Assembly (NCBI GenBank): GCA_040757475.1
Contig: JBFLWW010000002.1
Coordinates: 23,818 to 87,817, forward strand
DNA length: 64,000 nt
Source: Nitrospirota bacterium
Lineage (GTDB): Bacteria > Nitrospirota > Thermodesulfovibrionia > Thermodesulfovibrionales > SM23-35
Direction: 5' to 3'
Positions 5,388-61,484 of this stretch are shown here, one piece after another. Below the pieces are notes generated by a model. It saw only the letters and a list, made by a program, of their open reading frames with translations, had not been told where the DNA came from and did no database searches. Made by a program: the position numbers and the translations under genes. How positions within the stretch are numbered: the stretch's first letter is position 1; every line of letters starts with the position of its first letter.

Positions 5388-5789
5388 CTAAGGAATTTTA
5401 GTAAATCCATATTGCGTAAAGTGTACATCAAAAGAAAATGCAGTTCTAATCTTTAATCGTTCCATCAGAGCAAAACTTGTGCAGTCAGTGAAGGAAAATT
5501 CCTTATCGTCGTATTTCTCAAGAATTTTCCAACCTCTATCCCAGTCACTTTTTGTAATAGGCTCGATTTTGAGAAAAGAGATTGAGTTTAAAATATTTCC
5601 GAACCTTACCGTAGCTTTGGCACCTACAGTCTGTGAAAGAAGGTTATAGGTTTCAACCAGAATCAAGTCAGATGTGATTAGCTCCTCTTTTTTTAGAATA
5701 AGACCTGTATATTGTTTGCTTGCTTCTTCTGCATACTGGTCGTTTTTGTCAGCAATTGCAACCCATGCACCCGTATCAACAAATATCAT
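5388..5789 (-). CDS. vapC: PIN-domain toxin (VapC-like)
   Basis: 133 aa. The N-terminus [17 protein letters not shown] carries the PIN acidic residue and there is a C-terminal FTDCTSF motif. It overlaps the upstream antitoxin ORF by 4 nt. Confidence 0.75.
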
Positions 5790-6102: not shown

Positions 6103-6423
6103 CTATCTGACAACAGCCCTGAGAACCTTCAGTCCAAGGCGAAGTTTGTCGGGGTCAGCTTCTTTGAGCAGTACATTTATGTTTTCCTTAAGTTCCTTGG
6201 GGCTTTTTGCCTGATGTGCAAACTCAAAGAAGTCTTTTAGTTCAACGTTTAATGCCACAGCGATTCTTTCTAATACATCAAGAGAAGGATAGCTTCTACC
6301 GACTTCTATCCTGCTTAGATGTTTAGAGTCAATATCTACCATTTCAGAAAGTTGGTCTTGCGTTAGTCCTCTTGTTTTCCGTAATTCCTTTATCCTTGCC
6401 CCGAGCAATTCTTTGGTTCTCAT
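6103..6423 (-). CDS. XRE-family helix-turn-helix transcriptional regulator
   Basis: 106 aa. LGARIKELRKTRGLTQDQLSEMVDIDSKHLSRIEVGRSYPSLDVLERIAVAL is a classic HTH_3/Cro-C1 motif. Confidence 0.8.
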   Translation of the reverse strand: MRTKELLGARIKELRKTRGLTQDQLSEMVDIDSKHLSRIEVGRSYPSLDVLERIAVALNVELKDFFEFAHQAKSPKELKENINVLLKEADPDKLRLGLKVLRAVVR

Positions 6424-6495
6424 AAAACCTCCCTAATTATACAAATCATCAACTTTTCAGAGAGGCTTTAGAACAACATAAAATGACGAATAATA

Positions 6496-7678: not shown

Positions 7679-7741
7679 CCTCGTTGCAGTTAACTTTTGG
7701 ATTTTGACATCTTTTATCCCTTATTGCTATTCTTTCATAAA

Positions 7742-8629
7742 ATGAGAATGTATAAGGTGAATTTCAGCCTGAGAGAGCCGAAGGTGATATTCCTGATTAA
7801 TACATGTATGGGGATACTTCTGATTTTTGCAATTCTCTTTTTTGTCAGAGACATTATTTCAATCTCAATAAGCCATGATAGAAAAACTCCGATGCATGCG
7901 GAGAAATTCAGTCCTACAAGGACAAGTGCCGTGTCCCTGCAGGATTATGCACCTATACTTAAAAATAACCCTTTTGGTTTTCCCGGAGGCGAATTGAAAC
8001 CCATTATTGTCTCATCAGGAGAGGCATCAATCTCAAGGACAGATATATCCCTTATAGGAACTGTTTCAGGGCCAGAAAGTCTGAGCTATGCAATCTTTGC
8101 TGATAAGACAGGCTTTCAGGATGTTTTCAGGGTAGGTAATCCTGTTTTTGGTCTCGGAACCCTAAAAAAGGTTGAAAAGGATAGGGTATTTATAAGTAGC
8201 AGTGGCAGGGATATAGAGATTCCAATAGCAGAGATAACAACAATAAGAGAGATTAAAAGACCACCTACAGGTGAGACAGCTTCTGCTGGTTTTGCGCGGA
8301 AGACGGGTGAGGGAGTCTATACAGTTGACCAGAGAAGGGTTCAACAGGCAATAGAAAACCCCAACCAGATTATGACTGATGCCAGGCTCCTACCAAATAT
8401 TGTTGAAGGCAAACAGGAGGGATTTGTATTAAGGGAGGTGAGGCCTAATGGAATATATCAGAGCCTCGGTCTTCAGAATGGTGATGTCCTTTTAAGGATA
8501 AATGAGTATAATATCTCTAATCCTGAAGCTGCACTTCAGGCATTCACAGCACTTAAGGGGATGGACAGGGTTCAACTTGATATTGTAAGAGTCGGGGCAA
8601 AGATGACTATGACATATCAAATAAGGTAG
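7742..8629 (+). CDS. gspC: Type II secretion system protein C (N-terminal TM, HR region, C-terminal PDZ)
   Basis: The TM segment is VIFLINTCMGILLIFAILFFV. The C-terminal PDZ-like block is GFVLREVRPNGIYQSLGLQNGDVLLRINEYNIS. The start is uncertain (TTG 7697 or ATG 7742). Confidence 0.7.
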   Translation: MRMYKVNFSLREPKVIFLINTCMGILLIFAILFFVRDIISISISHDRKTPMHAEKFSPTRTSAVSLQDYAPILKNNPFGFPGGELKPIIVSSGEASISRTDISLIGTVSGPESLSYAIFADKTGFQDVFRVGNPVFGLGTLKKVEKDRVFISSSGRDIEIPIAEITTIREIKRPPTGETASAGFARKTGEGVYTVDQRRVQQAIENPNQIMTDARLLPNIVEGKQEGFVLREVRPNGIYQSLGLQNGDVLLRINEYNISNPEAALQAFTALKGMDRVQLDIVRVGAKMTMTYQIR

Positions 8630-11436: not shown

Positions 11437-13638
11437 ATGACTATGAAAGCGTTTAAAAAGCGTGTTATCTATTATCTGTTATCTGTTATTTTAATTTCAC
11501 TGTTCACTGTTCACTGTTCACTGTTCACTGTTTATGCTGAGACAAAAAAGGCTGATGAGAAGGTTACATTCAATTTCGTGGATGTTGACCTCGCCACTAT
11601 AACAAAATTTATAAGTGATATTACAGGGAAGAATTTTATCTTTGATGAGAGGGTGAAAGGCAAGATAACAATAATAGCCCCTTCTAAATTAAGTGTTGAC
11701 GATGCATACAATCTTTTCACATCCGTGCTTGAGCTTAAAGGCTTCACAGTTGTCCCATCAGGTGTTGACGCATATAAGATTATCCCTGCTATAGAGGCAA
11801 AACAGCGTGGGATACAGCTTGGTGCTGAGAGAGTGCCTGTTAATGAAAGCTACATAGCAAGACTTCTACCTTTAAAACATATATCCTCGGATGATGCCCT
11901 GAGATTTCTCCAACCCCTTATCTCAAAGGATGGTCATATATCCACATTCGGCCCTGGCAACCTTCTCCTTGTTGTTGACTCTGGACTGAATATTGAAAAG
12001 ATTCTTTCAATTATTGAGGCTATAGACCAGCCGTCAGCAAGAGAAGAACCTGAAATTGTCTTTCTCAAACATTCAAGCGCAGATGCCGTTGCAAAGATTC
12101 TCAATGAGGGTTTTGGAAAGGAAAGGACAAGGGCTGTTCCAGGCCAGCCACCACATATTGAGGAAGGCAGGGCAGTGGCTGACCAGAGGCTCAATGCTAT
12201 TGTCCTCTTTGGAGACAAAGGTGTCAGGGAATTCATGAAGGGACTGATAGCCCTGTTAGATGTGCCTTCGCCTGAGGCCCAGGGAAGGATAAATGTCTAT
12301 TTCCTTGAAAATGCTGATGCAACCGAGCTTGCAAAGGTCCTTGAGGGTATGCTGAAGGGTGCACAACCTGCAAGACAGGTCGCCCCTCCTGCACCGGGTG
12401 CTCCGCCAGTCACTCCCTTTGAGGCAGTTGGCGGCATAACCATAACACCTGATAAGGCCACAAATTCCTTTGTGATAGTTGCCTCACCAGCAGACTATCA
12501 GAACCTCTCACAGATTATAAAACAGCTTGATAAAAGGAGAAGACAGGTATTTGTTGAGGCAATGATTGTTGAGGCATCAATTGATAAGCTGAGGGAGTTG
12601 GGTGCAAAATGGAGAGCAACAGGAAGACATGAGGGAGAGCCTATAGTAATAGGCGGTTTCGGAACCATGAACCAGTCAGCACTTCAGTCTGTGATTTATG
12701 GGCTGACAGGTCTTACAGCTGGAGGAATGGGAAATTTCCTTGATATAAAGCTTACCACGCTTGATCCAACTACTGGTAAAGTTACAGAAGGCACTGTCAC
12801 AGTGCCTGGTTTTGCAGCCATCTTTAGCCTCAGTGAGTTTAAGGATGCTGTAAATGTCCTTTCAACCCCCCAGATTCTCACATCTGATAACAAAGAGGCA
12901 GAGATTGTGGTCGGTGAGAATGTTCCATTCATATCAAAAAGGGAAGCTGACCCTGCAAGAACCCTGTCTATGTTCACCACTATTGAAAGAAAGGATGTCG
13001 GAATCACGCTTAAAATAACCCCACAGATAACTGAAGGAGACTATGTCAAGCTTGATATATATCAGGAGATATCAGCGCTGGTATCTCCACCTGCTGGGCT
13101 TGAAGAGGCCATTCTTACAGGCGTGGGACCTACTACAACAAAACGCTCAACAAAGACATCGGTTGTGGTAAAGGACAGGCAGACTGTTGTTATCGGAGGC
13201 CTCATGCAGGAAAGGGATGCGGAGAACCTGACAAAGGTTCCGCTTCTTGGAGATATACCACTTCTTGGATGGCTTTTCAAATATAAGAGTGTCTCAAAGA
13301 AAAAGACAAACCTGCTTGTATTTCTTACACCTCATGTTGTTAAAAAGGCAGAAAATCTTGCGCAGATTACAAGAGATAAAGAGAAGGAGTTTGCAAGGGT
13401 GGAAAAGCAGTATAAAGAAGGAGAGCTTTTAATAAAGTTCAAAGAAGGGGTTTCAGAGGAGAGAGCACTATCAATAATCTCTGAAAAGGGTGCATCAGTT
13501 ATAACATTTATCGAGAACATTAAGGTCTATCATATAAAACTCAGAAAGAGGCAGGATGTAGAAGATGCCCTGAAGGAATTTTCTGAGATGCCAGAGATTC
13601 AATATGCAGAGCCGAATTATGTAATTAAAATAAAGTGA
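11437..13638 (+). CDS. gspD: Type II secretion secretin GspD with an extra C-terminal subtilase-propeptide (I9)-like domain
   Basis: 733 aa with N0-N3 domains and a secretin core (VPLLGDIPLLGWLFKYKS). The C-terminal 72 aa are not typical of secretins. The signal peptide is encoded by a heptamer array. Confidence 0.85.
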   Translation: MTMKAFKKRVIYYLLSVILISLFTVHCSLFTVYAETKKADEKVTFNFVDVDLATITKFISDITGKNFIFDERVKGKITIIAPSKLSVDDAYNLFTSVLELKGFTVVPSGVDAYKIIPAIEAKQRGIQLGAERVPVNESYIARLLPLKHISSDDALRFLQPLISKDGHISTFGPGNLLLVVDSGLNIEKILSIIEAIDQPSAREEPEIVFLKHSSADAVAKILNEGFGKERTRAVPGQPPHIEEGRAVADQRLNAIVLFGDKGVREFMKGLIALLDVPSPEAQGRINVYFLENADATELAKVLEGMLKGAQPARQVAPPAPGAPPVTPFEAVGGITITPDKATNSFVIVASPADYQNLSQIIKQLDKRRRQVFVEAMIVEASIDKLRELGAKWRATGRHEGEPIVIGGFGTMNQSALQSVIYGLTGLTAGGMGNFLDIKLTTLDPTTGKVTEGTVTVPGFAAIFSLSEFKDAVNVLSTPQILTSDNKEAEIVVGENVPFISKREADPARTLSMFTTIERKDVGITLKITPQITEGDYVKLDIYQEISALVSPPAGLEEAILTGVGPTTTKRSTKTSVVVKDRQTVVIGGLMQERDAENLTKVPLLGDIPLLGWLFKYKSVSKKKTNLLVFLTPHVVKKAENLAQITRDKEKEFARVEKQYKEGELLIKFKEGVSEERALSIISEKGASVITFIENIKVYHIKLRKRQDVEDALKEFSEMPEIQYAEPNYVIKIK
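11464..11533 (+). repeat. Heptamer lattice, 10 units (4x GTTATCT-type, 1 transitional unit, 5x ACTGTTC), encoding the gspD signal peptide
   Basis: Read directly from the sequence. It is in register over 70 nt and translates VIYYLLSVILISLFTVHCSLFTV. Confidence 0.9.
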
Positions 13639-15176: not shown

Positions 15177-16332
15177 AGGTTACAGGATAGATGGCAGTGA
15201 GGCGACAGGCACCCTTGAGGCTGATGGCCTGAATGATGCTGCCTCAAAGGTCAGGAACCTCGGTCTTTTCCCGAAAGAAATCAGAGAATATATTCACAGA
15301 GAAAAGACAGGTTTTTTCCACAAACCTGATACTGCACTTCTTCCTGCAATAACAAGGCAGCTATCGTTGCTTCTTTCCTCAGGGGTACCTCTGATGGAGG
15401 CACTCAGGGCACTTTCTGAAGAGAACAGGGGATTCTGGAAAAGGCGTCTTATTAGTGTAAGAGAACAAGTTGCTAGTGGTACAAGTTTTTCTCGTGCATT
15501 GGAAGAACATAAAAAAATCTTCCCTGAATTCTATATAAATATGGTGGCTGCTGGAGAACATAGCGGGACATTAGATAAGGTCCTTGTGAGGCTTGCCGAC
15601 TTTCTTGAAAAACAGAATGCCATCAGAGCAAAGATAAAGGTATCCATGATGTATCCCATGTTTATGATATGTGTGGGGTTTATTGTGATGTCGTTTCTTT
15701 TTATCTTTGTAATACCAAAAATAGTAAAGATATTTGAAGATACTAAAAGTGCCCTGCCGTTAATAACAATTATTCTTATAAACATAAGCAACTTTTTTCG
15801 TTATTACTGGTGGATACCTCTAATAGCAGTTATTTCAGGAGTTCTTGGTATAAGGAAATTACTGAGAGAACATAGGCTCTTAGTTGATAAAACAATATTG
15901 AGATTGCCAGGTAGCCTTCTACAGGCTTTATATCTTGCCCGATTTTCCCGGAGCCTGAGTTTCCTTTTAGAAGGTGGATTGCCTATGCTTAAGGCCCTTG
16001 AACTTTCAGCAAAATCTACAGGCAACAGAGCACTTGAACTCAAGGTCTTGGCAGCAGGGGAAAAGGTGGCTGAGGGAGGAAGACTTTCTGCATCATTAGA
16101 GGGATTCCCGCCTGTCATGCTCCAGCTCATCTCCGTAGGTGAACGAAGCGGAACCTTGATAGAGGTTTTAAATAAGGCAGCAGACTCTTACGAAGAAGAG
16201 TTCCATAGAAGGGTTCAGAGGGCCCTCTCCTTGCTCGAACCTTCTATGATTTTATTAATGGGTATTGTGGTAGGCTTTATTGTGCTTGCAGTCCTGCTCC
16301 CGATGTTCCAGTTAAACCAGCTGGTGAGGTAA
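15157..16332 (+). CDS. gspF: Type II secretion inner-membrane platform protein GspF
   Basis: 391 aa with duplicated GspF domains. The N-terminus MPIFSYRGYRIDGSEATG is typical. Confidence 0.85.
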   Translation: MPIFSYRGYRIDGSEATGTLEADGLNDAASKVRNLGLFPKEIREYIHREKTGFFHKPDTALLPAITRQLSLLLSSGVPLMEALRALSEENRGFWKRRLISVREQVASGTSFSRALEEHKKIFPEFYINMVAAGEHSGTLDKVLVRLADFLEKQNAIRAKIKVSMMYPMFMICVGFIVMSFLFIFVIPKIVKIFEDTKSALPLITIILINISNFFRYYWWIPLIAVISGVLGIRKLLREHRLLVDKTILRLPGSLLQALYLARFSRSLSFLLEGGLPMLKALELSAKSTGNRALELKVLAAGEKVAEGGRLSASLEGFPPVMLQLISVGERSGTLIEVLNKAADSYEEEFHRRVQRALSLLEPSMILLMGIVVGFIVLAVLLPMFQLNQLVR

Positions 16333-16334
16333 AA

Positions 16335-16769
16335 ATGAGAAAATATGAGAAAGGCTTTACACTTATCGAAATAATAGTTGTAGTTTTCATACTAAGCCTC
16401 CTCGCTGCTATTGTTGCCCCAAGGATTATAGGCAGGACAGAGGATGCCCGCATTGCAGAAGCGAAGGTACAGATAAGAAATTTTGAGACAGCTATAAAAC
16501 TTTTCAAGATGGACAATGGTTTCTATCCTGACACCCAGCAGGGGCTTGCTGCCCTCATTGAAAAACCAACCATCGGCAGAATCCCGAACAACTATAGAGA
16601 AGGGGGCTATCTCGAACAGAGAAAGATACCTATGGATCCGTGGGGCAATCCGTATATTTATGTCGCTCCTGGCCTCCATGGAGATTTTGATATCCTGAGT
16701 CTGGGTGCTGATGGAAAGGAAGGCGGGGAAGGGAAAGATGCAGACATTAAGAACTGGGAGTTACAGTAA
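16335..16769 (+). CDS. gspG: Major pseudopilin GspG
   Basis: The prepilin leader is MRKYEKG/FTLIEIIVV. It also carries the GspG signature DPWGNPY. Confidence 0.9.
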   Translation: MRKYEKGFTLIEIIVVVFILSLLAAIVAPRIIGRTEDARIAEAKVQIRNFETAIKLFKMDNGFYPDTQQGLAALIEKPTIGRIPNNYREGGYLEQRKIPMDPWGNPYIYVAPGLHGDFDILSLGADGKEGGEGKDADIKNWELQ

Positions 16770-17205
16770 AGCGGGATTCACGCTCCTTGAGCTGATAATT
16801 GTTATATTTATACTCTCACTTGTAATGGCTGTGGTCTTTCCATCTTTTTATGGAATTGTAGATGGAAGGCTTAAATCAGAGTCAGGTAAGATTGCGTCTT
16901 TATTAAGGTATCTGAATGATAGCGCAATCTCCAGAAAAGAAACATTTATACTTAAGATTAACCTTGATAGTAATACCTTCTTATGGGAAGGTCCTGATGG
17001 TAAAAGGTCAGAAAGTTTCAATGGTCTTTTAGATATTTTTACAACCTCAACAGGAAGTGTCTCAAGGGGTGAGGTGATACTTTCTTTCGGTCCCCTCGGC
17101 ATTCAGGAGAATCTCAGAATCCACCTGAGGGATAAAGATAAGGAAATGGCGGTTACGCTTAACCCGATGAGTGGAAGGGTAAAAATAATTCAAAGTTCAA
17201 AATGA
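16738..17205 (+). CDS. gspH: Minor pseudopilin GspH
   Basis: The leader is MQTLRTGSYSKAG/FTLLELIIV. It overlaps the gspG 3' end. Its C-terminal IQSSK* and its stop codon lie inside a repeat element. Confidence 0.6.
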   Translation: MQTLRTGSYSKAGFTLLELIIVIFILSLVMAVVFPSFYGIVDGRLKSESGKIASLLRYLNDSAISRKETFILKINLDSNTFLWEGPDGKRSESFNGLLDIFTTSTGSVSRGEVILSFGPLGIQENLRIHLRDKDKEMAVTLNPMSGRVKIIQSSK

Positions 17206-17265
17206 AAAATTCAAAATTAAGGAATTCCAAAATTTTTAATTTTAAATTTTTAATTTTAAATTCCC
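17189..17265 (+). repeat. 77-nt AT-rich inverted heptamer element (11 units, core TTAAGGAATTCC), copy 1
   Basis: TTCAAAG TTCAAAA TGAAAAA TTCAAAA TTAAGGA ATTCCAA AATTTTT AATTTTA AATTTTT AATTTTA AATTCCC. It spans the gspH stop and gspI start. Confidence 0.9.
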
Positions 17266-17609
17266 GCCCACATCAGGTGAGCGGGTTCGCCCTCCTCGAG
17301 GTTATGATTGCAGTTGGCATTGTTGGGGCCCTCCTTGTTACCCTCATATATACATTGAATTATAATCTTGGCATTGCTGAAAGACACGAGACTATTACTG
17401 TTGCAGCTATACTTGCAAGAGATAAAATTTCCGAGATAGAGAAAATGCCTGTTGATTCCAGAGGAGAATTCCCTGAACCTTATTCTGATTATCAATATGA
17501 GACCACAGTCAAAGAATCCGTATATCCTAACATATCAGAAATATCAGTTGTTGTTAGAAAAGGGAAAGAAGAGGTTAAACTCAGCGAATTAATTCAAAGT
17601 GCAAAATGA
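17202..17609 (+). CDS. gspI: Minor pseudopilin GspI (repeat-encoded long leader)
   Basis: ATGA overlap with the gspH stop. The cleavage motif is QVSG/FALLEVMIAVGIV. The first ~22 codons lie in the 77-nt repeat element. Confidence 0.6.
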   Translation: MKNSKLRNSKIFNFKFLILNSRPHQVSGFALLEVMIAVGIVGALLVTLIYTLNYNLGIAERHETITVAAILARDKISEIEKMPVDSRGEFPEPYSDYQYETTVKESVYPNISEISVVVRKGKEEVKLSELIQSAK

Positions 17610-17669
17610 AAAATGCAAAATTAAGGAATTTCAGAATTTTTAATTTTGAATTTTCAATTTTAAATTTCC
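17593..17669 (+). repeat. 77-nt AT-rich inverted heptamer element, copy 2 (about 88% identical to copy 1)
   Basis: TTCAAAG TGCAAAA TGAAAAA TGCAAAA TTAAGGA ATTTCAG AATTTTT AATTTTG AATTTTC AATTTTA AATTTCC. It spans the gspI stop and gspJ start. Confidence 0.9.
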
Positions 17670-18244
17670 GCCTGCCTAAGGCGGGGGGCTTCACCCTCAT
17701 CGAGTTATTGCTCGCATTTGCAATATTATCCGTAATACTTGCAACACTGTATAGCACGTTTTTCCTTTCGCATAAGGCACTGGATGGGATTGACAGCTCA
17801 TTGTTGAAACTCCAAGAATGTCGTGCAACTCTTGATGTCATGAGAAGGGAAGTAGACTCCATTCATTCCCTTTTAAAGGTTGATGACAGGGACATATATG
17901 GCAGGCAGACATCAAGACTTGTCTTTACCGCCTTTTCGTCTTTAAGACCGGGTCTTTCCATGATATCTTATTTTATTGAAGAAAAAGATGGTAAGTTAAT
18001 ACTCCTTAAAGAAATAAATTCTGCCTATATGTCTGATAATAAGGCTGAAAGTGTAGAGATAATAGAAGATGTTGAGGCTTTTATGGTAGAAGTTAAATAT
18101 AATGATAAATGGGTTAAAACATGGGATAGTTTTATAACCCATAGTATTCCTCAAGAGATCAGGATTACATTAACAACAAAGCTAAAAAATAAGACAGTTT
18201 CATTATTTGAAACTGTCAGGCCAAAAATTGGAAGGAGTATATGA
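17606..18244 (+). CDS. gspJ: Minor pseudopilin GspJ (repeat-encoded long leader)
   Basis: ATGA overlap with the gspI stop. The cleavage motif is KAGG/FTLIELLLAFAIL. The first ~22 codons lie in the 77-nt repeat element. Confidence 0.6.
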   Translation: MKNAKLRNFRIFNFEFSILNFRLPKAGGFTLIELLLAFAILSVILATLYSTFFLSHKALDGIDSSLLKLQECRATLDVMRREVDSIHSLLKVDDRDIYGRQTSRLVFTAFSSLRPGLSMISYFIEEKDGKLILLKEINSAYMSDNKAESVEIIEDVEAFMVEVKYNDKWVKTWDSFITHSIPQEIRITLTTKLKNKTVSLFETVRPKIGRSI

Positions 18245-19128
18245 GAGATAATAGAGGGATGGCCCTCGTATTGGTGCTTATGGTGCTTGTCATTATTACT
18301 GCCATGATTATAGAGTTTTCGTATGGTGTTTATACAGGTACAGGTGCACTTTATAACTGGCAGAGCTCTCAAAGACTCTCACTGATGGCAAAATCTGGAA
18401 TTCAAGTATCTCTCGAGAGTATCTCTGATATGAATGCTTCATATCCCTACACATACCCAGGTGTTATAGAGATGCCTGTTAGCCATACGCCCCTGCAGGA
18501 AGATTCTGATGGAACAATTCATGTAAGGATAGAGGATGAGAATTCAAAATTCAATATCAATTCTATTGTATACCCCAACGGCACATTAAATGAAAATGCA
18601 TTTAATTCTTTTAAGAGGCTTCTCTCATATCTTGCTGTGGATTCTGAGGTTGCCAACAGGGTTGCGGACTGGATAGATAAAGACAGCGAGCCGCGCCTTA
18701 TTTATTCTGAAGACAATGCTAAAAATGCGGCTCTCGATAGCCTTGATGAGCTGCTTTTAATAAATGGGGTAGACAGGCATACCTATGATAAGATCTCACC
18801 CTATCTGACTGTGTATGGCAATGGGCTTATAAATATTAACAGCGCAGAAATTCCTGTTCTTGTATGTCTTTCTGATACTATTACAGAGGAGCTTGCAGAG
18901 AGGATAATTCGCTACAGAGATATTATACCTTTTGAGGATACAAGCAAGATTGTAAAGGTTGCTGGCCTTGAGACTGTGGGACAATCCCTTATTGGACGAA
19001 TAACTGTTAAGGGTACAAGTTTTCGTATTATATCAACTGCGGAAGCAGGGGGTGTAAAAAGGATTGTAGACAGCGTTCTTGAAATATCAGGTGGCACTCC
19101 AACTGTCAAATACTGGAAGGAGATATGA
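18241..19128 (+). CDS. gspK: Minor pseudopilin GspK
   Basis: 295 aa. The N-terminus is RG-MALVLVLMVLVIITA. Position and size fit GspK. Confidence 0.65.
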   Translation: MRDNRGMALVLVLMVLVIITAMIIEFSYGVYTGTGALYNWQSSQRLSLMAKSGIQVSLESISDMNASYPYTYPGVIEMPVSHTPLQEDSDGTIHVRIEDENSKFNINSIVYPNGTLNENAFNSFKRLLSYLAVDSEVANRVADWIDKDSEPRLIYSEDNAKNAALDSLDELLLINGVDRHTYDKISPYLTVYGNGLININSAEIPVLVCLSDTITEELAERIIRYRDIIPFEDTSKIVKVAGLETVGQSLIGRITVKGTSFRIISTAEAGGVKRIVDSVLEISGGTPTVKYWKEI

Positions 19129-20210
19129 TGGGGAAGATAGCCTTTTTTGATATGAAGGGAGAAGAAATTACTCTCTATATGTTTGAAAAGAAGGCAGGCA
19201 ACTATGAATTGAAACTAACAACTACCTTTCCGGTCAGGGGATACAGTCCTATTATTATAATAAAAGATTTGCCTGAAGGTATAGAGGAGTCATATCTGAG
19301 TTTACCGTTAAGTTATCTAAATTTCAGGACTGTAGAACTTCCATTTTCTGACAGAAGAAGGATAAGAGAGGTTCTTCCATTCGAGCTAAATAATTTAATC
19401 CTGAATGGCTCTGGTAGTGTGGTTTTTGATAATATTACATTAGGGAATATTAATGGAAAATATAAGGTCCTTGCTGTATACATCGAGAAAATTATCCTCA
19501 GGGAGATTCTGGGAAGGTTCAAGGCATTCAATATATACCCAAAGGTTATAACATCAATAGAGCTTAAACCGCTTGTTGATAACTTCGATATAGAGCATCT
19601 TCTTAATCCAGTAGAGTTGGATAACAAAAAACGAATAGATATAGCTATAAGTGAGATCAAAGGTCACATTATTAACCTGAGGAGAGATGAATTTTCCTAT
19701 ACAAAAGATACCGAAAAAATAAAGAAGTCACTCAGATTGAGTGCAATACTTGCTGCCTTATTGATATTAGTGTTTGCTTCTGACCTGAGTTTAAGAATTT
19801 TCTCAATAAAGAGAGAAGCATCTAATATTAGAGAAGAGATCAGGAAGACATATTCAAGTATGTTTCCACATGAAAGGTCTACAGAGGCGTATGGCCCTGC
19901 GGCTTTAATATATCAGCTCAAATCACATATTAAAGAATTAAAGACTAAGGAAGAGTCTCTCACAGGTGTTTCTCCACTGCGGCTTTTGCTTGATCTGTCT
20001 CGTGTCAGCAGACCAGATATAGCATTTGCTGAGATAACAATAGATAGGGAGCGGGTAATACTGAGAGGTGAGGCTTCATCTCTAAGTGATGTCCAGCAGA
20101 TAAAGGGCAGGCTCGCAGAGTTCCTCACTGATGTCGATATCTCTGACACAAAATCCTCTTTACAGGGCCGGACAGTGTTTACTATTACAGCGAAGGAGAA
20201 GAGGTCTTGA
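19125..20210 (+). CDS. gspL: GspL-like assembly protein
   Basis: 361 aa with a cytoplasmic N-domain, a central TM (LSAILAALLILVFASDL) and a periplasmic C-domain. It is coupled to its neighbours. Confidence 0.55.
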   Translation: MMGKIAFFDMKGEEITLYMFEKKAGNYELKLTTTFPVRGYSPIIIIKDLPEGIEESYLSLPLSYLNFRTVELPFSDRRRIREVLPFELNNLILNGSGSVVFDNITLGNINGKYKVLAVYIEKIILREILGRFKAFNIYPKVITSIELKPLVDNFDIEHLLNPVELDNKKRIDIAISEIKGHIINLRRDEFSYTKDTEKIKKSLRLSAILAALLILVFASDLSLRIFSIKREASNIREEIRKTYSSMFPHERSTEAYGPAALIYQLKSHIKELKTKEESLTGVSPLRLLLDLSRVSRPDIAFAEITIDRERVILRGEASSLSDVQQIKGRLAEFLTDVDISDTKSSLQGRTVFTITAKEKRS

Positions 20211-20710
20211 GAGTAGGGCGATTGTTTTCACGTAATTCGCTGCTGATATGTGGAATCGGAGTGCTTATTGTGCTCGGCATTTTATTGGTTAATGTCCTTT
20301 TATCTGCAAAAACCGAACTCGCACAACTAAGAGTTCAACAGAAAGAGATGTCTTTGCTCAAAGATGAATTTGCGTCGCTCAAAAACAGGGTGGATTCTCT
20401 AAAAGGCAGAAGGTCTCTTACCAAGGTAGGAGGTATTGTTCAGGCGACTGATGAGGTTTTTGCGACTTCAGGCTTGAAAGATAAGATTAAATCTCTAAAG
20501 CCTGTTGGCAGGAGAGAGATAAAGGATGCCCTGGAGGAAGAGGCCGAAGTTCATATAGAAAAGGTAAACATGAATGAGATGATAAACATCTTTTATAAGA
20601 TTGAAAATGCACCTATGATTCTGTCTATAAAAAAGGCAACAATCAAGACATCATTTGAGAACCCTGAGTTACTGAATATCACAATGACCCTCGCATTCGT
20701 TAAAATCTAA
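20207..20710 (+). CDS. gspM: GspM-like protein
   Basis: 167 aa with a single N-terminal TM. It follows gspL. The assignment rests mainly on position. Confidence 0.45.
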   Translation: MRVGRLFSRNSLLICGIGVLIVLGILLVNVLLSAKTELAQLRVQQKEMSLLKDEFASLKNRVDSLKGRRSLTKVGGIVQATDEVFATSGLKDKIKSLKPVGRREIKDALEEEAEVHIEKVNMNEMINIFYKIENAPMILSIKKATIKTSFENPELLNITMTLAFVKI

Positions 20711-20712
20711 GA

Positions 20713-20768
20713 TTCAAAGTGAAAAATAGAAGATTAAAGATTTTCCTTATTTTTACATTTTCGATTTT
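20713..20768 (+). repeat. Degenerate copy of the AT-rich element at the gspM/gspN junction
   Basis: TTCAAAG TGAAAAA TAGAAGA TTAAAGA TTTTCCT TATTTTT ACATTTT CGATTTT. Confidence 0.7.
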
Positions 20769-21516
20769 GGGTTTTATATTTCTTTTCTGGTTAATAGTAA
20801 TCCCGGAGAGTTTAATTACAGATATGATCGAGAGCTCTATCAAAGGTGAAAATGTTCGGATAGGGATTGAGGGTTTCAAAAAAGGTTTATTCTATAATTT
20901 CAGGATTGGGAAAATTTTATTGAATAGCTCTAACGACACGCTGGTGTCTATTGAAGATATTTCTGGTCGTATTAACCTCCTGTTTTTTTTCATAATGAGA
21001 CTAAACATCTCTTTCCATGGAAATATAGGTAACGGTGTAATTCTGGGTAATATAAATCTGTCCGGGAATAAAAATCACATCAGTCTGAACATCAACTCTG
21101 TGAATATAGACAATGTCCCTCTTCTAAGAGTCATAGGTATCGAGGGGAAGGGTGTCCTGTCAGGAGAGTTCAGGTTAAAAAATAGTCAGGGTGACCTTAA
21201 ATTTTTCATAAGGGATGTACAACTAAAAGATACATCTTTTTCTGGTTTCCCAATTCCATTCAGTTTTTTTAATAGCATAAAAGGTGGTATGGTTATAAAA
21301 GGTGACCTGATTGAAGTTAATTCTATTTCATTTGAAGGTAAAGATATTTACGCGAGGGCTAAGGGAAGTGTACAAGGAAATAATCTGGACATAAAATTAG
21401 AATTGATGCCAGAAGCCTCTTTTACCGGTGAATCATACATTTTTACTCTTCTAAGCAATTACAAGATATCTCCTAAATATTATGTAATCCCTATAAAGAC
21501 GCGTATCAGCATATAA
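20719..21516 (+). CDS. gspN: GspN-like protein
   Basis: 265 aa with an N-terminal anchor, last gene of the cluster. The start codon and anchor lie within a degenerate repeat element. Confidence 0.4.
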   Translation: MKNRRLKIFLIFTFSILGFIFLFWLIVIPESLITDMIESSIKGENVRIGIEGFKKGLFYNFRIGKILLNSSNDTLVSIEDISGRINLLFFFIMRLNISFHGNIGNGVILGNINLSGNKNHISLNINSVNIDNVPLLRVIGIEGKGVLSGEFRLKNSQGDLKFFIRDVQLKDTSFSGFPIPFSFFNSIKGGMVIKGDLIEVNSISFEGKDIYARAKGSVQGNNLDIKLELMPEASFTGESYIFTLLSNYKISPKYYVIPIKTRISI

Positions 21517-21637
21517 TCTTAAATTCCAAATAACCAGACATCAATAACCAGATAAGTTCCATCATATCAATATATAGTAGTCTCTCTGTAATCTGGCACC
21601 CCAAATATAGGAACTGTTATTTCTTATTAATTTTTTC

Positions 21638-23351: not shown

Positions 23352-25044
23352 AAAAAGGGCAATTATTCTGAATACTGTAATTATTTTCAGTTTCTTTGCG
23401 GTATCTTTGCGTCTGACAGACCTGATGATACTAAACCACAAGCGCCTATCTGAGAGGGCAAGAGCACAACATATAAAGGTTGAAGACATCCAGGTGAGAA
23501 GGGGAACTATATCTGACCGGAGAGAAAGAGAAATGGCGGTAAACCTTGAGCTTGAGTCGCTTTACTGTGACCCTGAAAGCCTTATTATTGATGATGTTGA
23601 TGTAAAGAAACTTTCAATGACTATCGGCAGGAAGGCAGAAGTGATTCTATCTAAGATACCCCCGGAGGGAAGGTTTGCATGGATCGAAAGGAAGCTCGAC
23701 TCTGATGTTGCTGGTAAGGTAAGGAGGCTTGATATCAAGGGTCTGGGTTTTCTGCCAGAGGCAAAAAGATTTTATCCAAAAGGAAAGCTTGCCGCTCATA
23801 TCCTCGGTTTTGTTGGTGTGGACAACCAGGCACTTGAAGGAATCGAACTTGAATATGACGAATATCTAAAGACAACCGGGGGGAAAATATTATTCTCAAG
23901 GGATGCAAGTGGCAAAGTTCTATCATCTGGAGTGGATATAAAGGCAAAAGGGAATAATATCGTGCTTACAATAGATGAAGGGCTTCAGTATCTTGTCGAA
24001 AGCGAACTTGAAAAGGCGATGTTGAAATGGAGGTCTTCTGCAGCATCGGCTATCATGATAGACCCATTTACAGGAGAGATACTGGCCCTTGCCAATATAC
24101 CTGCATACGACCCGAACAGTCCCATGAGGGTAAGCGGTTTTGAAAGGAGAAACAGGGCTATTACTGATTGCTATGAACCAGGTTCTGCATTCAAAATAAT
24201 TGTCGGGACCGCTGCACTTGAGGAGAAGATAGTTGACCTCAACACAAAATTTGATTGTAGCAGAGGAGGCGTTGAGGTTGGTGGTAAAGTAATACACGAT
24301 GCCCACAGACATGGTGTACTTACATTCAAGGAGGTTATTCAGAAATCCTCCAATGTTGGTTCTGTCATGATTGGTATGAAACTCGGGAAGGAAAGGGTTT
24401 ATAAATATGCGAAGCTTTTCGGGTTTGGTGAAAAGACAGAGATAGACTTACCAGGTGAGGTTTCAGGATGGATATATCCGCCAGAAAAATGGTCAGGTAC
24501 CTCTATTGGTGCTATATCAATCGGCCAGGAGGTTGCTGTAACACCACTCCAGATACTCAGGGCATATTCCGCAATTGCGAATGGAGGTTTTCTTGTCAGG
24601 CCACATGTTGTCTCTGAGATAAGGTCACCTGAAGGTCAGGTGCTTGTTTCCTTCAGGGGGTATGAAAAGAAGCGTGCAATTTCCACAGAGACAGCCGAGA
24701 CATTCAAAGATATACTGAAGACTGTTGTTGAAGAAGGCGGGACAGGGTGTAGTGCTTCAGTTGAGGGTAATCAGGTAGCAGGCAAGACAGGGACAGCGCA
24801 GGTTATAGACCCAAAGACAGGGAGATATTCAAAAGAAAAATATGTGAGTTCGTTTGTAGGATTTGTGCCGGCTGACAATCCTAAGATGGCTCTTATTATC
24901 GTCATTTATGAGCCTAAAGGCCAGATTTACGGAGGTGTTGTAGCCGCACCTGTTTTCAAGGAAATAGCGAATCAGGCATTGTCATATCTTAATGTGCCGA
25001 GGGAAGACACCCCTAACAAAAATTTTATGCTGGTATCAAGATGA
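23344..25044 (+). CDS. ftsI: Peptidoglycan D,D-transpeptidase FtsI (PBP3)
   Basis: Contains SxxK (SAFK), SxN (SSN) and KTG (GKTGTA). ATG 23344 overlaps the ftsL stop. Confidence 0.85.
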   Translation: MNKKRAIILNTVIIFSFFAVSLRLTDLMILNHKRLSERARAQHIKVEDIQVRRGTISDRREREMAVNLELESLYCDPESLIIDDVDVKKLSMTIGRKAEVILSKIPPEGRFAWIERKLDSDVAGKVRRLDIKGLGFLPEAKRFYPKGKLAAHILGFVGVDNQALEGIELEYDEYLKTTGGKILFSRDASGKVLSSGVDIKAKGNNIVLTIDEGLQYLVESELEKAMLKWRSSAASAIMIDPFTGEILALANIPAYDPNSPMRVSGFERRNRAITDCYEPGSAFKIIVGTAALEEKIVDLNTKFDCSRGGVEVGGKVIHDAHRHGVLTFKEVIQKSSNVGSVMIGMKLGKERVYKYAKLFGFGEKTEIDLPGEVSGWIYPPEKWSGTSIGAISIGQEVAVTPLQILRAYSAIANGGFLVRPHVVSEIRSPEGQVLVSFRGYEKKRAISTETAETFKDILKTVVEEGGTGCSASVEGNQVAGKTGTAQVIDPKTGRYSKEKYVSSFVGFVPADNPKMALIIVIYEPKGQIYGGVVAAPVFKEIANQALSYLNVPREDTPNKNFMLVSR

Positions 25045-26705
25045 AACTTAGAGAACTTCTTCACGGTTGTGATTATATTGACTCCTCACTTGTCACTTGT
25101 CACTTGTCACTCGATACGGACATCTCAGGTGTAGCTTATGATTCGAGAAAGGTGAAAGAAGGTTACCTGTTTGTGGCGATAAAAGGTGAGAAGCACGATG
25201 GCCATGATTTCATCGGTGATGCAATTAAGCGAGGAGCAGTGGCAATAGTGCATGAAAAAACAGTAACGAGTTACGAGTTACGAGTTACGAGTAAAGAAAA
25301 AGACTTGTCACTTGTCACTCGTCACTTGTCACTTATTCAGGTCAAAAACAGCAGAAAGGCACTTGCCTGTATCGCAAATAATTTTTACGGGAGGCCCTCT
25401 GAGAGGCTCACAGTTATAGGTATAACCGGTACAAACGGGAAGACAACGACAACATATCTCCTTAAATCTATACTCGAATCGTGGGGAAAAGAAATCGGTC
25501 TTATTGGAACAATACAATACATGATAAAGGACAAAAGTTACTCTGCATTATATACAACACCCGAGGCATTAGAGTTCCATGGACTTTTAAGAGATATGCT
25601 CTTATCAGGGTGCACGCATATCATATCAGAGGTCTCATCACACGCCCTTGCTCAGAGCAGAGTGGATGGGACTGTTTTTAAGACTGTAGCGTTTACAAAT
25701 CTCACAAGGGAACATCTGGACTTCCATAAAACTTTGGAGGATTACTTCAGGGCAAAGGAGAGACTGTTTAGAGAGCTTCTCGATAAGGATGGGACCTCTG
25801 TAATAAATCTCGATGACCTATATGGAAAAAGACTGATCTCTTCACTCAGCAGCGGGGTCCCCAGAAAGTCGCAAGACTTTCTGGGGCGTATATTAACATA
25901 CGGCCTTGAGACAGGAGCAGACATTATGGCGAGGGATATCAATAGTTCATTCAAAGGGTTGAGGTTCAAAATAGCATTCCGTGGCAGGAATTATAATATC
26001 TCATCTGCTCTGATGGGTCTACCAAATGTATACAATATTATGTCTGCAGCTGGGGCATCAATCTCGATAGGAGTTCCATGGGATATAATTCTTGAGGGTA
26101 TAAAAAATTTAGGCACTGTTACAGGCAGATTCGAAAAGGTTAATCTTGATCAGAATTTTCTGTGTATCGTTGATTATGCCCATACAGAGGATGCCCTCGA
26201 GAGGCTGATATATACAGCGAGGGAACTTATAAATAAGCCTTTAGTCAATAGTCATCAGTCATTAGTGAAAGACAGTAACAAGTTACGAGTTACGAGTAAC
26301 AAGTATGAAGATAAGAACTTGTCACTTGTTACTTGTCACTCGTCACCCCGTATTATTACTGTCTTTGGGTGTGGAGGAGATAGAGATCGCAGTAAGAGAC
26401 CGGGGATGGGTACAGTAGCAACAAGGCTTAGCGATTTTGTGATTATCACCTCTGACAATCCGAGGTCTGAAGACCCGAACAAAATAATTAGAGAGATTGA
26501 AGCAGGAGCTATAAGGAGAAACTATATAATCGAACCTGACAGAGCAGAGGCAATCAAAAGAGCTATTATGCTGGCAGGCGAGGGAGATATTGTCCTTGTT
26601 GCAGGCAAGGGACATGAGGATTATCAGGAAATTAAAGGTGTAAGGTATAGATTTAATGACAGGGAAATATTAGAAAAGGCGATCAAACAAAGAATAAAGT
26701 CGTAA
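25041..26705 (+). CDS. murE: UDP-MurNAc-tripeptide synthetase MurE, carrying three in-frame repeat insertions
   Basis: Contains DSRKV, GITGTNGKTTT, DYAHTEDAL and GCGGDRD. The ORF is 554 aa versus roughly 490-500 aa typical. Confidence 0.9.
   Translation: MKLRELLHGCDYIDSSLVTCHLSLDTDISGVAYDSRKVKEGYLFVAIKGEKHDGHDFIGDAIKRGAVAIVHEKTVTSYELRVTSKEKDLSLVTRHLSLIQVKNSRKALACIANNFYGRPSERLTVIGITGTNGKTTTTYLLKSILESWGKEIGLIGTIQYMIKDKSYSALYTTPEALEFHGLLRDMLLSGCTHIISEVSSHALAQSRVDGTVFKTVAFTNLTREHLDFHKTLEDYFRAKERLFRELLDKDGTSVINLDDLYGKRLISSLSSGVPRKSQDFLGRILTYGLETGADIMARDINSSFKGLRFKIAFRGRNYNISSALMGLPNVYNIMSAAGASISIGVPWDIILEGIKNLGTVTGRFEKVNLDQNFLCIVDYAHTEDALERLIYTARELINKPLVNSHQSLVKDSNKLRVTSNKYEDKNLSLVTCHSSPRIITVFGCGGDRDRSKRPGMGTVATRLSDFVIITSDNPRSEDPNKIIREIEAGAIRRNYIIEPDRAEAIKRAIMLAGEGDIVLVAGKGHEDYQEIKGVRYRFNDREILEKAIKQRIKS
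25080..25114 (+). repeat. Heptamer array (GACTCCT, 3x CACTTGT, CACTCGA) in the murE N-terminus
   Basis: Read directly from the sequence. It translates DSSLVTCHLSLD. Confidence 0.9.
25262..25338 (+). repeat. Composite inverted heptamer element (5x AGTTACG-type, spacer unit, 5x CTTGTCA-type) in murE
   Basis: 11 units on one lattice. It translates VTSYELRVTSKEKDLSLVTRHLSL. Confidence 0.9.
26241..26345 (+). repeat. Composite element of 15 heptamers = 35 codons in murE
   Basis: 4x TAGTCA-type, 5x AGT[TA]AC[AG]-type, a spacer, then 4x CTTGT[CT]A-type units. It translates LVNSHQSLVKDSNKLRVTSNKYEDKNLSLVTCHSS. Confidence 0.9.
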
Positions 26706-33674: not shown

Positions 33675-34864
33675 AATATGATAAGTGGATGCTTTTTGTC
33701 ACAATTCTCCTTATAGGTTTTGGTGCACTTATGATATACAGCTCCACATCTGTTATCACACCTGTGCTTGCAAAGAAAAATGTCACAGAATTTTATTATT
33801 TCAAAAGGCATATGTTTACGATGCTTATCGGTTTTGGGATTATGTTTTTTGCCTACAGGCTAAAACTTTCTACAATTAAGAAGATGGCCGTGCCCCTCCT
33901 GATTTTTTCTTTTGTATTACTAATATTAGTTTTTGTGCCTGGCATAGGTGTCTCTGCCAATAATGCAAGGAGGTGGATAAGACTCTGGCCCTCTACATTC
34001 CAGCCATCAGAGCTTGTTAAGCTCTCCATGGTCATATTTCTTGCAAAGTATATGTCAATGTTAGAGTATAGAACAGACAGCCTTGTCTCTTTTATAAAAC
34101 CTGTTCTTGTAATGGCGGTATTTCAGGTGGTTTTTCTCAAACAGCCTGATTTTGGGTCTGTGATAAGCCTTATGCTTCTGACATTTATAATGTTATTTCT
34201 TTCAGGCATAAGGCTCAGATATCTTGCATATCTGTCAGTGCTTGCCCTGCCTATAATATACAAACTTATCATGGAGCCTTACCGCCTCAAAAGGGTTATG
34301 GCATTTCTCGATCCGTGGAAAGACCCTCAGGGAAGCGGATTCCAGCTTGTACAATCTTTTATAGCCCTCGGCAGCGGAGGGCTAACAGGCGTTGGACTTG
34401 GAAAGTCCAGACAGAAATTAGCCTTCCTACCCGAATCCCATACGGATTTCATATTCTCTCTAATCGGGGAGGAACTCGGCTTTATAGGTGTGCTGGTCGT
34501 TATAACGCTTTTCTTGTTCTTGTTTATCAAGGGGATATCCATTGCAAACAGGTCAAGGGACAAGTTTGTCTATTATCTTGCATTCGGACTTTCACTGATG
34601 ATCTCTTTGCAGGCGCTAATTAATTTTGCAGTTGCAACAGGCATGGTACCAACAAAAGGTTTGCCACTGCCGTTTATTAGCTATGGGGGTTCATCTCTCT
34701 TTGTGAATATGGCTGCTATAGGGATACTGCTTAATATATCGAAGGGAGAGGAGAACAGAAAGATTGCAGATATAGACCCAAAAATGATTGTGAGGAGGAA
34801 GGCCCGATTAAAAATTCAAAATGCAAAATTCAAAAATCAAAATTACGGAATTCCTTTATTTTGA
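33659..34864 (+). CDS. ftsW: Peptidoglycan glycosyltransferase FtsW (SEDS) with repeat-encoded C-terminal tail
   Basis: SEDS motifs are present (RWIRLWPSTFQPSE, LPESHTDFIF, PLPFISYGGSS). Confidence 0.9.
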   Translation: MEFEMKYDKWMLFVTILLIGFGALMIYSSTSVITPVLAKKNVTEFYYFKRHMFTMLIGFGIMFFAYRLKLSTIKKMAVPLLIFSFVLLILVFVPGIGVSANNARRWIRLWPSTFQPSELVKLSMVIFLAKYMSMLEYRTDSLVSFIKPVLVMAVFQVVFLKQPDFGSVISLMLLTFIMLFLSGIRLRYLAYLSVLALPIIYKLIMEPYRLKRVMAFLDPWKDPQGSGFQLVQSFIALGSGGLTGVGLGKSRQKLAFLPESHTDFIFSLIGEELGFIGVLVVITLFLFLFIKGISIANRSRDKFVYYLAFGLSLMISLQALINFAVATGMVPTKGLPLPFISYGGSSLFVNMAAIGILLNISKGEENRKIADIDPKMIVRRKARLKIQNAKFKNQNYGIPLF

Positions 34865-34888
34865 ATTTTTAATTTTAAATTTTAAATT
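34808..34888 (+). repeat. AT-rich inverted heptamer element (core TTACGGAATTCC) at the ftsW 3' end
   Basis: About 12 units in register. The ftsW stop (34862-64) lies inside the element. The left arm translates RLKIQNAKFKNQNYGIPLF*. Confidence 0.9.
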
Positions 34889-41657: not shown

Positions 41658-41685
41658 TTTTTTATAGAAATAACATCAGAATATT

Positions 41686-41736
41686 AAAAATTGCAAATTG
41701 AAAATTTTAAATTTCAAATTTAAAATCTAAAAATTC
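41686..41736. repeat. AAATTNN heptamer array between 5S rRNA and tRNA-Ala
   Basis: aaattgc aaattga aaatttt aaatttc aaattta aaatcta aaaattc. Confidence 0.8.
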
Positions 41737-56622: not shown

Positions 56623-56709
56623 TGCAAAATTCAAAAAGCAAAATTCAAAAATCCAATTCAAGATTTAAAATTTCCTTAATTTTGCATTTTTCATTTTTAA
56701 TTTAAAATT
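56623..56709. repeat. AT-rich inverted heptamer element in the glyA-nrdR spacer
   Basis: Positions 56673-56696 are the exact reverse complement of 17604-17627 (24 nt). Confidence 0.9.
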
Positions 56710-61344: not shown

Positions 61345-61357
61345 TAATGAAACATCA

Positions 61358-61484
61358 ATTCAAAATGCAAAATGCAAAATTAAAAATTTCAGAGCAAAAT
61401 TCAAAATTAACCACAATCTTAACTATGCATGTTCTTTTAATTTTGAATTTAAATTTTGCATTTTTAATTTTAAATTTTAAATTT
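61358..61484. repeat. Largest AT-rich inverted heptamer element (127 nt) in the lysS-lolC spacer
   Basis: The left arm is caaaatg/caaaatt units (61358-61409). The loop is 61410-61435. The right arm is aattttg/aatttta units (61436-61484). Confidence 0.85.

Follow-up and report, generated by a model that had tools for sequence, protein, structure and literature searches.

Dispersed heptamer palindromes probably supply stop codons, start codons and cleavable leaders at pseudopilin gene junctions of a Thermodesulfovibrionales type II secretion operon

We analyzed a window of 64,000 nt (positions 23,818 to 87,817 of contig JBFLWW010000002.1, assembly GCA_040757475.1) from a metagenome-assembled genome (MAG) of Thermodesulfovibrionales (Nitrospirota). 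The window contains a complete type II secretion system (T2SS) operon at 7.7-21.5 kb, in which two copies of an AT-rich palindromic element occupy the gspH/gspI and gspI/gspJ junctions. Judging from sequence comparisons, these dispersed heptamer palindromes probably supply the stop codon of the upstream gene, the start codon of the downstream gene and a cleavable 28-residue leader. The element belongs to a repeat family that is polymorphic between strains; the two copies at these junctions are each open only in the frame of the downstream gene, start codons past the element are absent from several genes, and native starts have been lost or disabled in relatives. From these observations we infer that translation starts at the element ATG, that it is coupled to that of the upstream gene, and that the long leader is cleaved off. 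The features at the two junctions are the following (open reading frame, ORF; Shine-Dalgarno, SD; a slash within a peptide marks the predicted cleavage site).

17187..17265: element copy A, AT-rich palindrome of 11 heptamers with core TTAAGGAATTCC, at the gspH/gspI junction
17591..17669: element copy B, the same palindrome with core TTAAGGAATTTC, at the gspI/gspJ junction
16738..17205, + strand: gspH, minor pseudopilin, MQTLRTGSYSKAG/FTLLE; last five codons and stop in the left arm of copy A
17202..17609, + strand: gspI, long ORF of 135 aa with a 28-residue predicted leader; G(-1) at 17283-17285, F(+1) at 17286-17288
17606..18244, + strand: gspJ, long ORF of 212 aa with a 28-residue predicted leader; G(-1) at 17687-17689, F(+1) at 17690-17692
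17202..17205, + strand: ATGA stop/start overlap of gspH and gspI, within the left-arm heptamer AAAATGA
17606..17609, + strand: ATGA stop/start overlap of gspI and gspJ, in the left arm of copy B
17263..17285, + strand: short GC-rich hairpin (CCCGCCCAC...GTGAGCGGG) coding for the leader end RPHQVSG
17667..17689, + strand: short GC-rich hairpin (CCGCCT...AGGCGG) coding for the leader end RLPKAGG
17277..17279, + strand: alternative GTG start of gspI, which would yield the leader MSG/F; no SD-like purine run upstream
17672..17674, + strand: CTG, the sole near-cognate codon from copy B to the cleavage site

Copies A and B are identical at 70 of the 77 positions compared in a preliminary description of this DNA (90.9%, rather than the ~88% first given there), and their identity is 91% over 79 nt. 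The heptamer composition reported there was recovered in both copies, with 7-nt units arranged around TTAAGGAATT(C/T)C. Long hairpins are predicted for A and B, with minimum free energies of -23.4 and -29.0 kcal/mol, respectively (121-nt segments), and z-scores of -3.2 and -2.4 relative to dinucleotide shuffles. The reading frames are as previously described: gspH ends in the left arm with ...IQSSK and a stop (17188-17205; TGA at 17203-17205), gspI ends with ...IQSAK and a TGA at 17607-17609, and both downstream ORFs open at an ATGA overlap (17202 and 17606). The predicted N-terminal sequences are MKNSKLRNSKIFNFKFLILNSRPHQVSG/FALLE for GspI and MKNAKLRNFRIFNFEFSILNFRLPKAGG/FTLIE for GspJ, so that the predicted leaders are indeed unusually long, with 28 residues each; the leader peptides encoded from the element ATGs include MKNSKLR... 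and IFNFKFLILNSR. The long form of gspI (start 17202) is the one reported by gene callers. The two alternative codons that had been pointed out are also in place, GTG lying three codons before the F in gspI and CTG six codons before it in gspJ. The tail SRLPKAGG recurs in the GspI of another species (L124).

The names gspI and gspJ, which had been assigned from the sequence alone, hold under several types of evidence. The Pfam N_methyl domain was found on residues 25-49 of GspJ (30.7 bits, above the cut-off) and on residues 27-48 of GspI (16.8 bits, below the cut-off), and GspJ carries a T2SSJ domain (31.5 bits; cut-off 28). Both proteins present a class III signal (G/FALLE and G/FTLIE) with G(-1), a hydrophobic +1 residue and E(+5). 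Homologues of GspI carry this name in JGI, those of GspI and GspJ are so named by their sources, and these homologues likewise come from MAGs of Nitrospirota/Thermodesulfovibrionales. Finally, the gene order gspC-D-E-F-G-H-I-J-K-L-M-N is that of a T2SS.

The same junction arrangements are present in independent assemblies, which argues against an assembly artefact. A tandem duplication of pseudopilin 5' ends was also considered and rejected: similarity drops at the left boundary TA/ATTCAAA, only protein-level conservation is seen past G/F, and copies also exist at non-pilin sites. These sharp boundaries and non-pilin copies indicate that A and B are copies of an element. A search of positions 16000-21600 with Rfam cmscan (E ≤ 1) gave nothing on the elements; the lone match in this interval lies away from them and is sub-threshold (DapZ, 25 bits versus a gathering score of 56 bits). 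No promoter-like or terminator-like site was found in copy A or B, with counts equal to the shuffle expectation.

The preliminary description knew the element from these two sites only. Both copies are real, but they are members of a dispersed and polymorphic family. Indeed, the core pattern occurs seven times in the window versus 0.30 expected by chance, and at least six family copies were recognized in these 64 kb. Besides A and B, the following copies and one similar array were identified.

20701..20779: degenerate, older third copy at the gspM/gspN junction, with a GTG start (20719) in the left arm and a right arm coding for IFLIFTFSILGFIF
34810..34888: copy with 84% identity between ftsW and murG; the ftsW ORF enters the copy
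56631..56709: intergenic copy directly upstream of nrdR
61357..61484: intergenic copy with an extra central segment, directly upstream of an FtsX/MacB-type permease gene
41685..41735: similar AT-rich heptamer array beside tRNA-Ala

A scan of JGI metagenomes for exact core matches yielded 36 loci, about 19 of which are true elements (16 distinct), that is, present A-rich left and T-rich right heptamer arms. These metagenome copies lie on unrelated contigs, mostly in ordinary intergenic DNA: between convergent gene ends, in the rplN/rplX spacer, or just before start codons. No transposase was evident beside the copies examined, no search aimed at transposases having been made. Within the window, the ftsW ORF continues beyond its Pfam domain, which ends at aa 364, and extends 19 codons into the copy at 34810-34888. 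The same copy holds a 25-codon ORF (MQNSKIKITEFLYFEFLILNFKLKV) whose TGA overlaps the murG ATG as ATGA, in a frame that differs from that of murG.

In each of copies A and B, one forward frame out of three is free of stops and this is the frame of the downstream gene: that of copy A begins at 17187 and corresponds to gspI, and that of copy B corresponds to gspJ. An open downstream frame was also observed at the other junctions examined in the operon and its relatives. All seven junction copies (G/H, H/I, I/J, J/K and M/N, after the gsp genes on either side) present a left-arm ATG or GTG and stay open through the right arm in the downstream frame. In contrast, none of the 16 intergenic metagenome copies is open, although 11 of them have a left-arm start. 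The difference is significant for the seven copies (Fisher test; P = 4 × 10−6), which represent five junctions, some shared by descent, and are not fully independent, and also when each junction is counted once (P = 5 × 10−5). An open frame as a built-in property of the family is thus ruled out by the intergenic copies. Because nothing would be expected to clear stops from just one frame of an untranslated spacer, these results suggest that the element is translated.

We then compared these junctions across relatives. A scan of genome collections with a GspI profile was dominated by Desulfuromonadales and other matches and left about eight useful relatives. The closest is contig JBFMDQ010000008.1 (hereafter L002; GspJ 99% identical), followed in the text by GCA_016212245.1 (L118), GCA_023382235.1 (L122) and JGI Ga0494796_001049 (L119). 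L002 and the window differ at four junctions of this operon (G/H, H/I, I/J and J/K), two of which are empty in the window.

16766..16770, + strand: empty site GTAAA at gspG/gspH; L002 has a 72-nt copy and a second GTAAA, for a net gain of 77 nt
18241..18258, + strand: empty gspJ/gspK junction with the native short leader MRDNRG/M; filled in L002

The G/H junction is thus a single clean filled/empty pair, in which the repeated GTAAA is a candidate 5-bp target-site duplication. With this insertion, translation from the old gspH ATG in the overlap with gspG would be out of frame and would end at a TAA of the element, so that only the element ATG is usable for gspH of L002. The J/K pair shows a net gain of 72 nt in L002 with additional changes and is not clean; the native gspK ATG reads ATA in L002. 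At H/I, L002 presents a different palindrome, (GTAACGA)n ... (CTCGTCAC), whose start after GTAAAAATA coincides exactly with that of the window element. Both strains have a filled I/J, with 5 substitutions across the 62 element-derived nt of gspJ. Neither H/I nor I/J has an empty allele in a close relative. In L118, H/I is filled, J/K carries a (CTGGTCA)x4 array, and I/J retains half an element: the left arm and core are gone, and the ATG and right arm are kept in frame, which suggests that it is the coding part, not the hairpin, that is retained. In the DNA of four further species (L121-L124), AT-rich heptamer palindromes likewise precede GspG, H, I, J and K in frame.

A comparison with relatives lacking the element had been proposed earlier, and in more distant relatives of this kind it revealed short native leaders of 5-8 residues (MRNNRG/F, MGHKRNGG/F, GTG-RAKG/F) at these junctions. 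In these relatives, gspI and gspJ overlap at an ATGA, gspH ends with GR(A/T)KI and 3-5 further residues, and an SD-like GGAAGG lies within its conserved SGR codons.

The gspM/gspN junction of L002 resembles the others, with gspM ending ...IQDSK and its stop in a GTGA overlap. In the window, the right arm of the copy at 20701-20779 codes for IFLIFTFSILGFIF in the GspN membrane anchor; GspN homologues at ≤50% identity have an unrelated, shorter anchor (e.g., MKKILIALTAIPVIF...). It is possible that element sequence has been exapted there as a transmembrane segment of GspN.

The distribution of start codons further restricts where translation may begin. There is no ATG, GTG or TTG from the element to G(-1) in gspJ of the window, and no canonical start after the element in gspH of L002, gspI and gspJ of L118, gspI of L121, or gspI and gspJ of L122. 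The GTG of the window gspI is absent from the 86%-identical L118 orthologue, and the GTG chosen for GspJ of L002 by the NCBI annotation pipeline (PGAP) is GCG in the window. Between the window and L002, divergence is also higher in the leader part of gspJ than in its mature part (5 of 62 nt versus 10 of 560; P = 0.011; about 4.5-fold), as would fit a cleaved and weakly constrained peptide. The preliminary description had left two options, replacement of the native starts by the element or use of unconventional downstream starts. The comparative evidence favors the first and disfavors the second, and the element ATG within the ATGA overlap most likely starts translation of the downstream gene.

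Based on these data, we propose that the family sits in ordinary spacers elsewhere and that, the tightly overlapping T2SS operon having none, only copies that rebuild a working gene junction would persist in it. Ribosomes translating gspH or gspI would enter the left arm and melt the AU-rich hairpin, and the upstream ORF would terminate, a few codons into the A-rich arm, at the TGA of AAAATGA. Reinitiation would then occur at the overlapping ATG of the same heptamer. Because there is no SD sequence at a useful distance, such termination-reinitiation coupling is a plausible route, as at native ATGA junctions. The T-rich right arm, stop-free in one frame, would be translated into a K/R-rich and then F/I/L/N-rich stretch (...IFNFKFLILNS...), and the short GC-rich segment would code for the leader end (RPHQVSG or RLPKAGG). 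The outcome would be a 28-residue class III leader ahead of an intact G/F(T/A)L(I/L)E site, at which the prepilin peptidase would cut to release an unchanged mature pseudopilin. Because the leader is removed and the mature protein unchanged, the leader-coding region would be a low-cost harbour for the element.

Several observations weigh against this proposal. Neither element ATG is preceded by an SD-like sequence at proper distance (the nearest purine run, GGAAGGG, ends 21 nt before the gspI ATG), and both ATGs lie within the stem of the predicted hairpin, which could hinder initiation unless an upstream ribosome opens it. In gspI, a GTG is available three codons ahead of the cleavage site. 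The NCBI pipeline took the GTG (MGG/F) for GspJ of L002 and a truncated start for GspI of L118. The long leaders, as candidate substrates of the T2SS prepilin peptidase, contain an 11-residue hydrophobic patch, and the window ORFs that were scanned yielded no prepilin peptidase gene.

The first two of these points would be expected if the copies were purely intergenic insertions, that is, untranslated spacers followed by starts at GTG 17277, CTG 17672 or other near-cognates and by leaders of 3-6 residues; the available GTG in gspI, the PGAP call for the L002 GspJ orthologue and the untranslated, intergenic state of most family members elsewhere point the same way. We nevertheless regard this explanation as distinctly unlikely. 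The window gspJ has no canonical start past the element, the GTG/GCG position varies between 99%-identical strains, gspI of L118 lacks the GTG, and at least seven further genes in relatives have no start at all outside the element. Moreover, GTG and CTG likewise lack an SD, and the stop-free downstream frame of 7/7 junction copies versus 0/16 intergenic ones is not expected of a spacer.

A different question is whether the cassette is a selected regulatory module, whose hairpin would enforce strict coupling, the start codon becoming accessible only once an upstream ribosome has melted the stem, or would set mRNA stability or processing and thereby the stoichiometry of the GspH-I-J-K tip complex. 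This possibility is compatible with translation from the element ATG, and we consider it unlikely, though less so than an untranslated spacer. At the same junctions, palindromic elements are found again in species with a GspI identity of only 55-65%, the start codon lies in the stem with the upstream stop in the same arm, and copies of different junctions are as alike as orthologous ones (95% versus 92%, and 100% over 89 nt between the H/I and I/J cassettes of L122), which suggests active copying. Conversely, presence or absence varies at four junctions among near-identical strains in which nothing else changed, unrelated heptamer types replace one another at the same site, and a hairpin-less half element is kept. 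Many relatives work with short native junctions, and sequence divergence is raised within the element. Finally, since units of 7 and 14 nt are not divisible by 3 and the arrays separate the start from the mature region, gain or loss of units could shift the frame and turn minor pseudopilins on and off; GspJ of L119 indeed has no in-frame start, beside a run of ten A. Such a phase-variation switch is highly improbable and was rejected: the four closest GspJ (96-100% identical) all have leaders of exactly 28 residues, with no variation in unit number. Besides, the arrays are short (~4.7 units) and imperfect, and similar arrays occur within essential genes (e.g., murE), in which slippage would kill the cell.

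Annotated start sites near these elements cannot be relied upon. In relatives (P0124, P0003, P0192, P0206), public pipelines give the same pseudopilin genes a leader of 28 residues, one of 3 residues (MGG/F), or an N-terminus cut inside the mature helix, so that start-codon calls for one gene are inconsistent in the phylum, with 28-, 3- or minus-8-residue N-termini. The truncated calls P0003 (L118) and P0206 (L120) were considered as counter-examples to a long leader and rejected: an in-frame upstream ATG runs through the palindrome in both, which indicates that the truncations are annotation artefacts. P0192 (L119), with no canonical start and beside the A10 run, is uninformative in this respect. 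In L119 (~2500-2560), gspJ has no ATG, GTG or TTG from the upstream in-frame stop to G/F, and a slip of 1 nt in the A10 homopolymer after the gspI stop would link an upstream ATG to gspJ. This A10 could represent a sequencing error or a slippery tract.

The long leaders had been described as highly atypical, which holds relative to the textbook T2SS and not for this clade. We surveyed 236 GspI and GspJ homologues of the Nitrospirota type with a recognizable cleavage motif. Their median called leader is 18-20 residues, about 64% of them have called leaders of at least 17 residues, and only 12 of the 150 long leaders contain a Met within their last 12 residues. Many leaders are visible translations of differing repeat elements (MKNSKINNSKNYNFNFLILNS..., HPSSFILHPSSF..., FTVHCSLFT..., NTQHSTLNT..., PPLVKGGRGD...). 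Another palindrome, GC-rich (...CCCCCCTTGATGAGGGGGG...), was observed in the pseudopilin leaders of relatives (L005, ~1560-1625 and ~6370-6438; L124, ~1540-1655) and in many of the homologous proteins surveyed; its ATG lies in the hairpin loop and its translations look like PPLMRGELKGG, PPLVKGGRGD or SPFSKGGLRGI.

Copies also appear to move between junctions. In L122, the H/I (2491-2579) and I/J (2885-2973) cassettes show 100% identity across 89 nt, starting at TA/ATTCAAAATGC and ending with the second base of the G(-1) codon, between unrelated flanks; both pseudopilins consequently share the predicted leader MQNEKCKLNNSGIFNFQFSIFNSRRDG. The window H/I copy and the I/J copy of L002, which are not orthologous, share 95% identity, a value similar to that of the orthologous I/J copies (92%). 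Because of this identity in L122 and this similarity of non-orthologous copies, the whole stop-start-leader cassette seems to be exchanged between paralogous junctions. This exchange probably proceeds by gene conversion, besides transposition-like insertion (the one case with a 5-bp duplication).

We compared the element with known palindromic repeats. Rickettsia palindromic elements (RPEs) are in-frame, translated sequences of about 100-150 bp (Ogata et al. 2000, summarized in PMC10969869). Like them, the present elements are small multicopy palindromes in frame with coding genes, to which they add a peptide without destroying the host protein. RPEs encode a conserved peptide and sit inside ORFs, whereas the present element is 72-79 nt long, is made of 7-nt units, occupies gene junctions, gives stop and start codons, and places its peptide in a predicted cleaved leader; the host phylum also differs. 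Given the Nitrospirota host and the size of 72-79 nt, the element is not an RPE, and the likeness is behavioural, the two being set apart by description rather than by consensus alignment. Intragenic ERIC elements and MITEs (for miniature inverted-repeat transposable element) carrying ORFs provide other palindromic repeats translated in frame (PMC10969869). The present element shares with MITEs a 72-79 nt palindromic structure and its copy number (at least six copies in 64 kb and ~16 distinct ones in other contigs), and its evidence of target-site duplication is a single 5-bp case; membership among MITEs is plausible. Correia/NEMIS-type repeats are dispersed inverted-repeat elements that are co-transcribed with flanking genes and form mRNA hairpins. 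As with ERIC/MITE and Correia/NEMIS repeats, we observed dispersed inverted repeats, mainly intergenic, hairpin-forming and occasionally fused in frame with neighboring ORFs. We know of no ERIC/MITE or Correia/NEMIS case that repeatedly gives an ATGA overlap and a prepilin leader.

Repetitive extragenic palindromic sequences and bacterial interspersed mosaic elements (REP/BIME), associated with RAYT transposases, are 20-40 bp long, have a GTAG or CGTC head and are extragenic (PMC3733652). They too are short palindromes with a high copy number at gene ends within operons. The present element, with its 72-79 nt, begins with (A)ATTCAAA, lacks a GTAG/CGTC head and overlaps coding sequence, and does not belong to them; it is longer, AT-rich, heptamer-built and apparently translated at junctions. 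The STRR heptanucleotide repeats of cyanobacteria form tandem arrays in heterocystous species. Both types consist of tandem 7-nt units of many sequences that are found genome-wide. To our knowledge, STRRs do not pair as inverted arrays into palindromes, nor are they known to code for leaders. A literature search on heptanucleotide or palindromic repeats in Nitrospirota or Thermodesulfovibrionia, and on STRR, found no description of such elements. As to leader length, type IVb pilins are processed from leaders of 15-30 aa (PMC3927602). Because such lengths are normal for these pilins, 28 residues should not be prohibitive in principle. The predicted leader, if the element ATG is used, likewise consists of 28 aa followed by a G/hydrophobic cleavage site. 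GspI and GspJ are nevertheless of the type IVa-like, short-leader kind, and their extra length is repeat-derived and strain-polymorphic rather than a family trait. What appears to be new is the pairing of inverted heptamer arrays, the donation of a stop and a start at a junction, and the use of the prepilin leader as a harbour with clade-wide recurrence.

Heptamer arrays are not restricted to the junctions. We found 27 others in the window, 23 of which lie at least partly inside long ORFs. In murE (25041-26705), paired inverted arrays (GTTACGA)n ... (CTTGTCA)n are in frame at 25256-25334 and 26268-26346, with another at 25081-25114. Relative to solved MurE structures, 13 residues are inserted at about aa 79-91, within the array region at aa 74-99, and aa ~397-435 belong to a segment that is absent from these structures. 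This coincidence of arrays and extra segments suggests that an essential enzyme carries translated, RPE-like palindromic insertions. T-rich heptamer arrays were also found near the N-termini of several proteins.

11463-11535: gspD, aa 9-33
31273-31377: Peptidase_S11 protein, aa 32-67
42952-42987: LolA, aa 12-23
51431-51525: ORF 51395-52099, aa 13-44

The N-terminal arrays of exported proteins (TTCACTG, CTTCTCA, TTTTCAC ...), presumably in signal-peptide regions, code for stretches such as SLFTVHCSLFTV. Together with the pseudopilin leaders, these signal-peptide arrays suggest that heptamer arrays prefer cleaved N-terminal segments. Four further arrays (AAGTTCA, TCACTTC, CCTCACT) were observed at 32578-33125 inside a MurD-like ligase gene (32247-33674), and an array pair inside tsaD (48826-48903).

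A broader reading of these data is possible, though rather doubtful when all its parts are taken jointly. Thermodesulfovibrionales would harbor an undescribed superfamily of routinely translated heptamer palindromes, whose survival would be favored in disposable N-termini (prepilin leaders, Sec signal peptides and membrane anchors). The stop-start-leader unit would be a portable cassette, gene-converted between paralogues up to the G(-1) codon, and would have been co-opted as a hairpin-gated translational coupler setting the ratios of the GspH-I-J-K tip complex. If so, more than half of the pseudopilins of this clade would be made with leaders of 20-40 residues derived from selfish DNA.

The textbook T2SS prepilin leader has 6-8 residues. 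If leaders are indeed translated from the elements, T2SS prepilin peptidases would accept leaders three to five times that length, with a sequence nearly free to vary, even between strains. By donating a stop, a start and a cleavable peptide, a non-coding palindrome would have a route to survive in a gene-dense operon, and the RPE paradigm would extend from insertion in a loop to insertion in a leader. The natural series of filled and empty alleles at four junctions of near-identical strains allows tests of the effect of the hairpin on coupling.

The remaining genes of the T2SS operon, which is followed by an mraZ-rsmH-ftsL-ftsI-mur cluster, are the following.

7697-8629: gspC
11437-13638: gspD, followed by gspE and gspF
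16335-16769: gspG
18241-19128: gspK
between gspK and gspN: GspL-like and GspM-like genes
20719-21516: gspN

Upstream of this cluster, a PIN-domain gene (5388-5789, − strand) and a separate HTH_3 (Xre-type) gene (6103-6423, − strand) lie about 300 nt apart and may represent a toxin-antitoxin-like pair.

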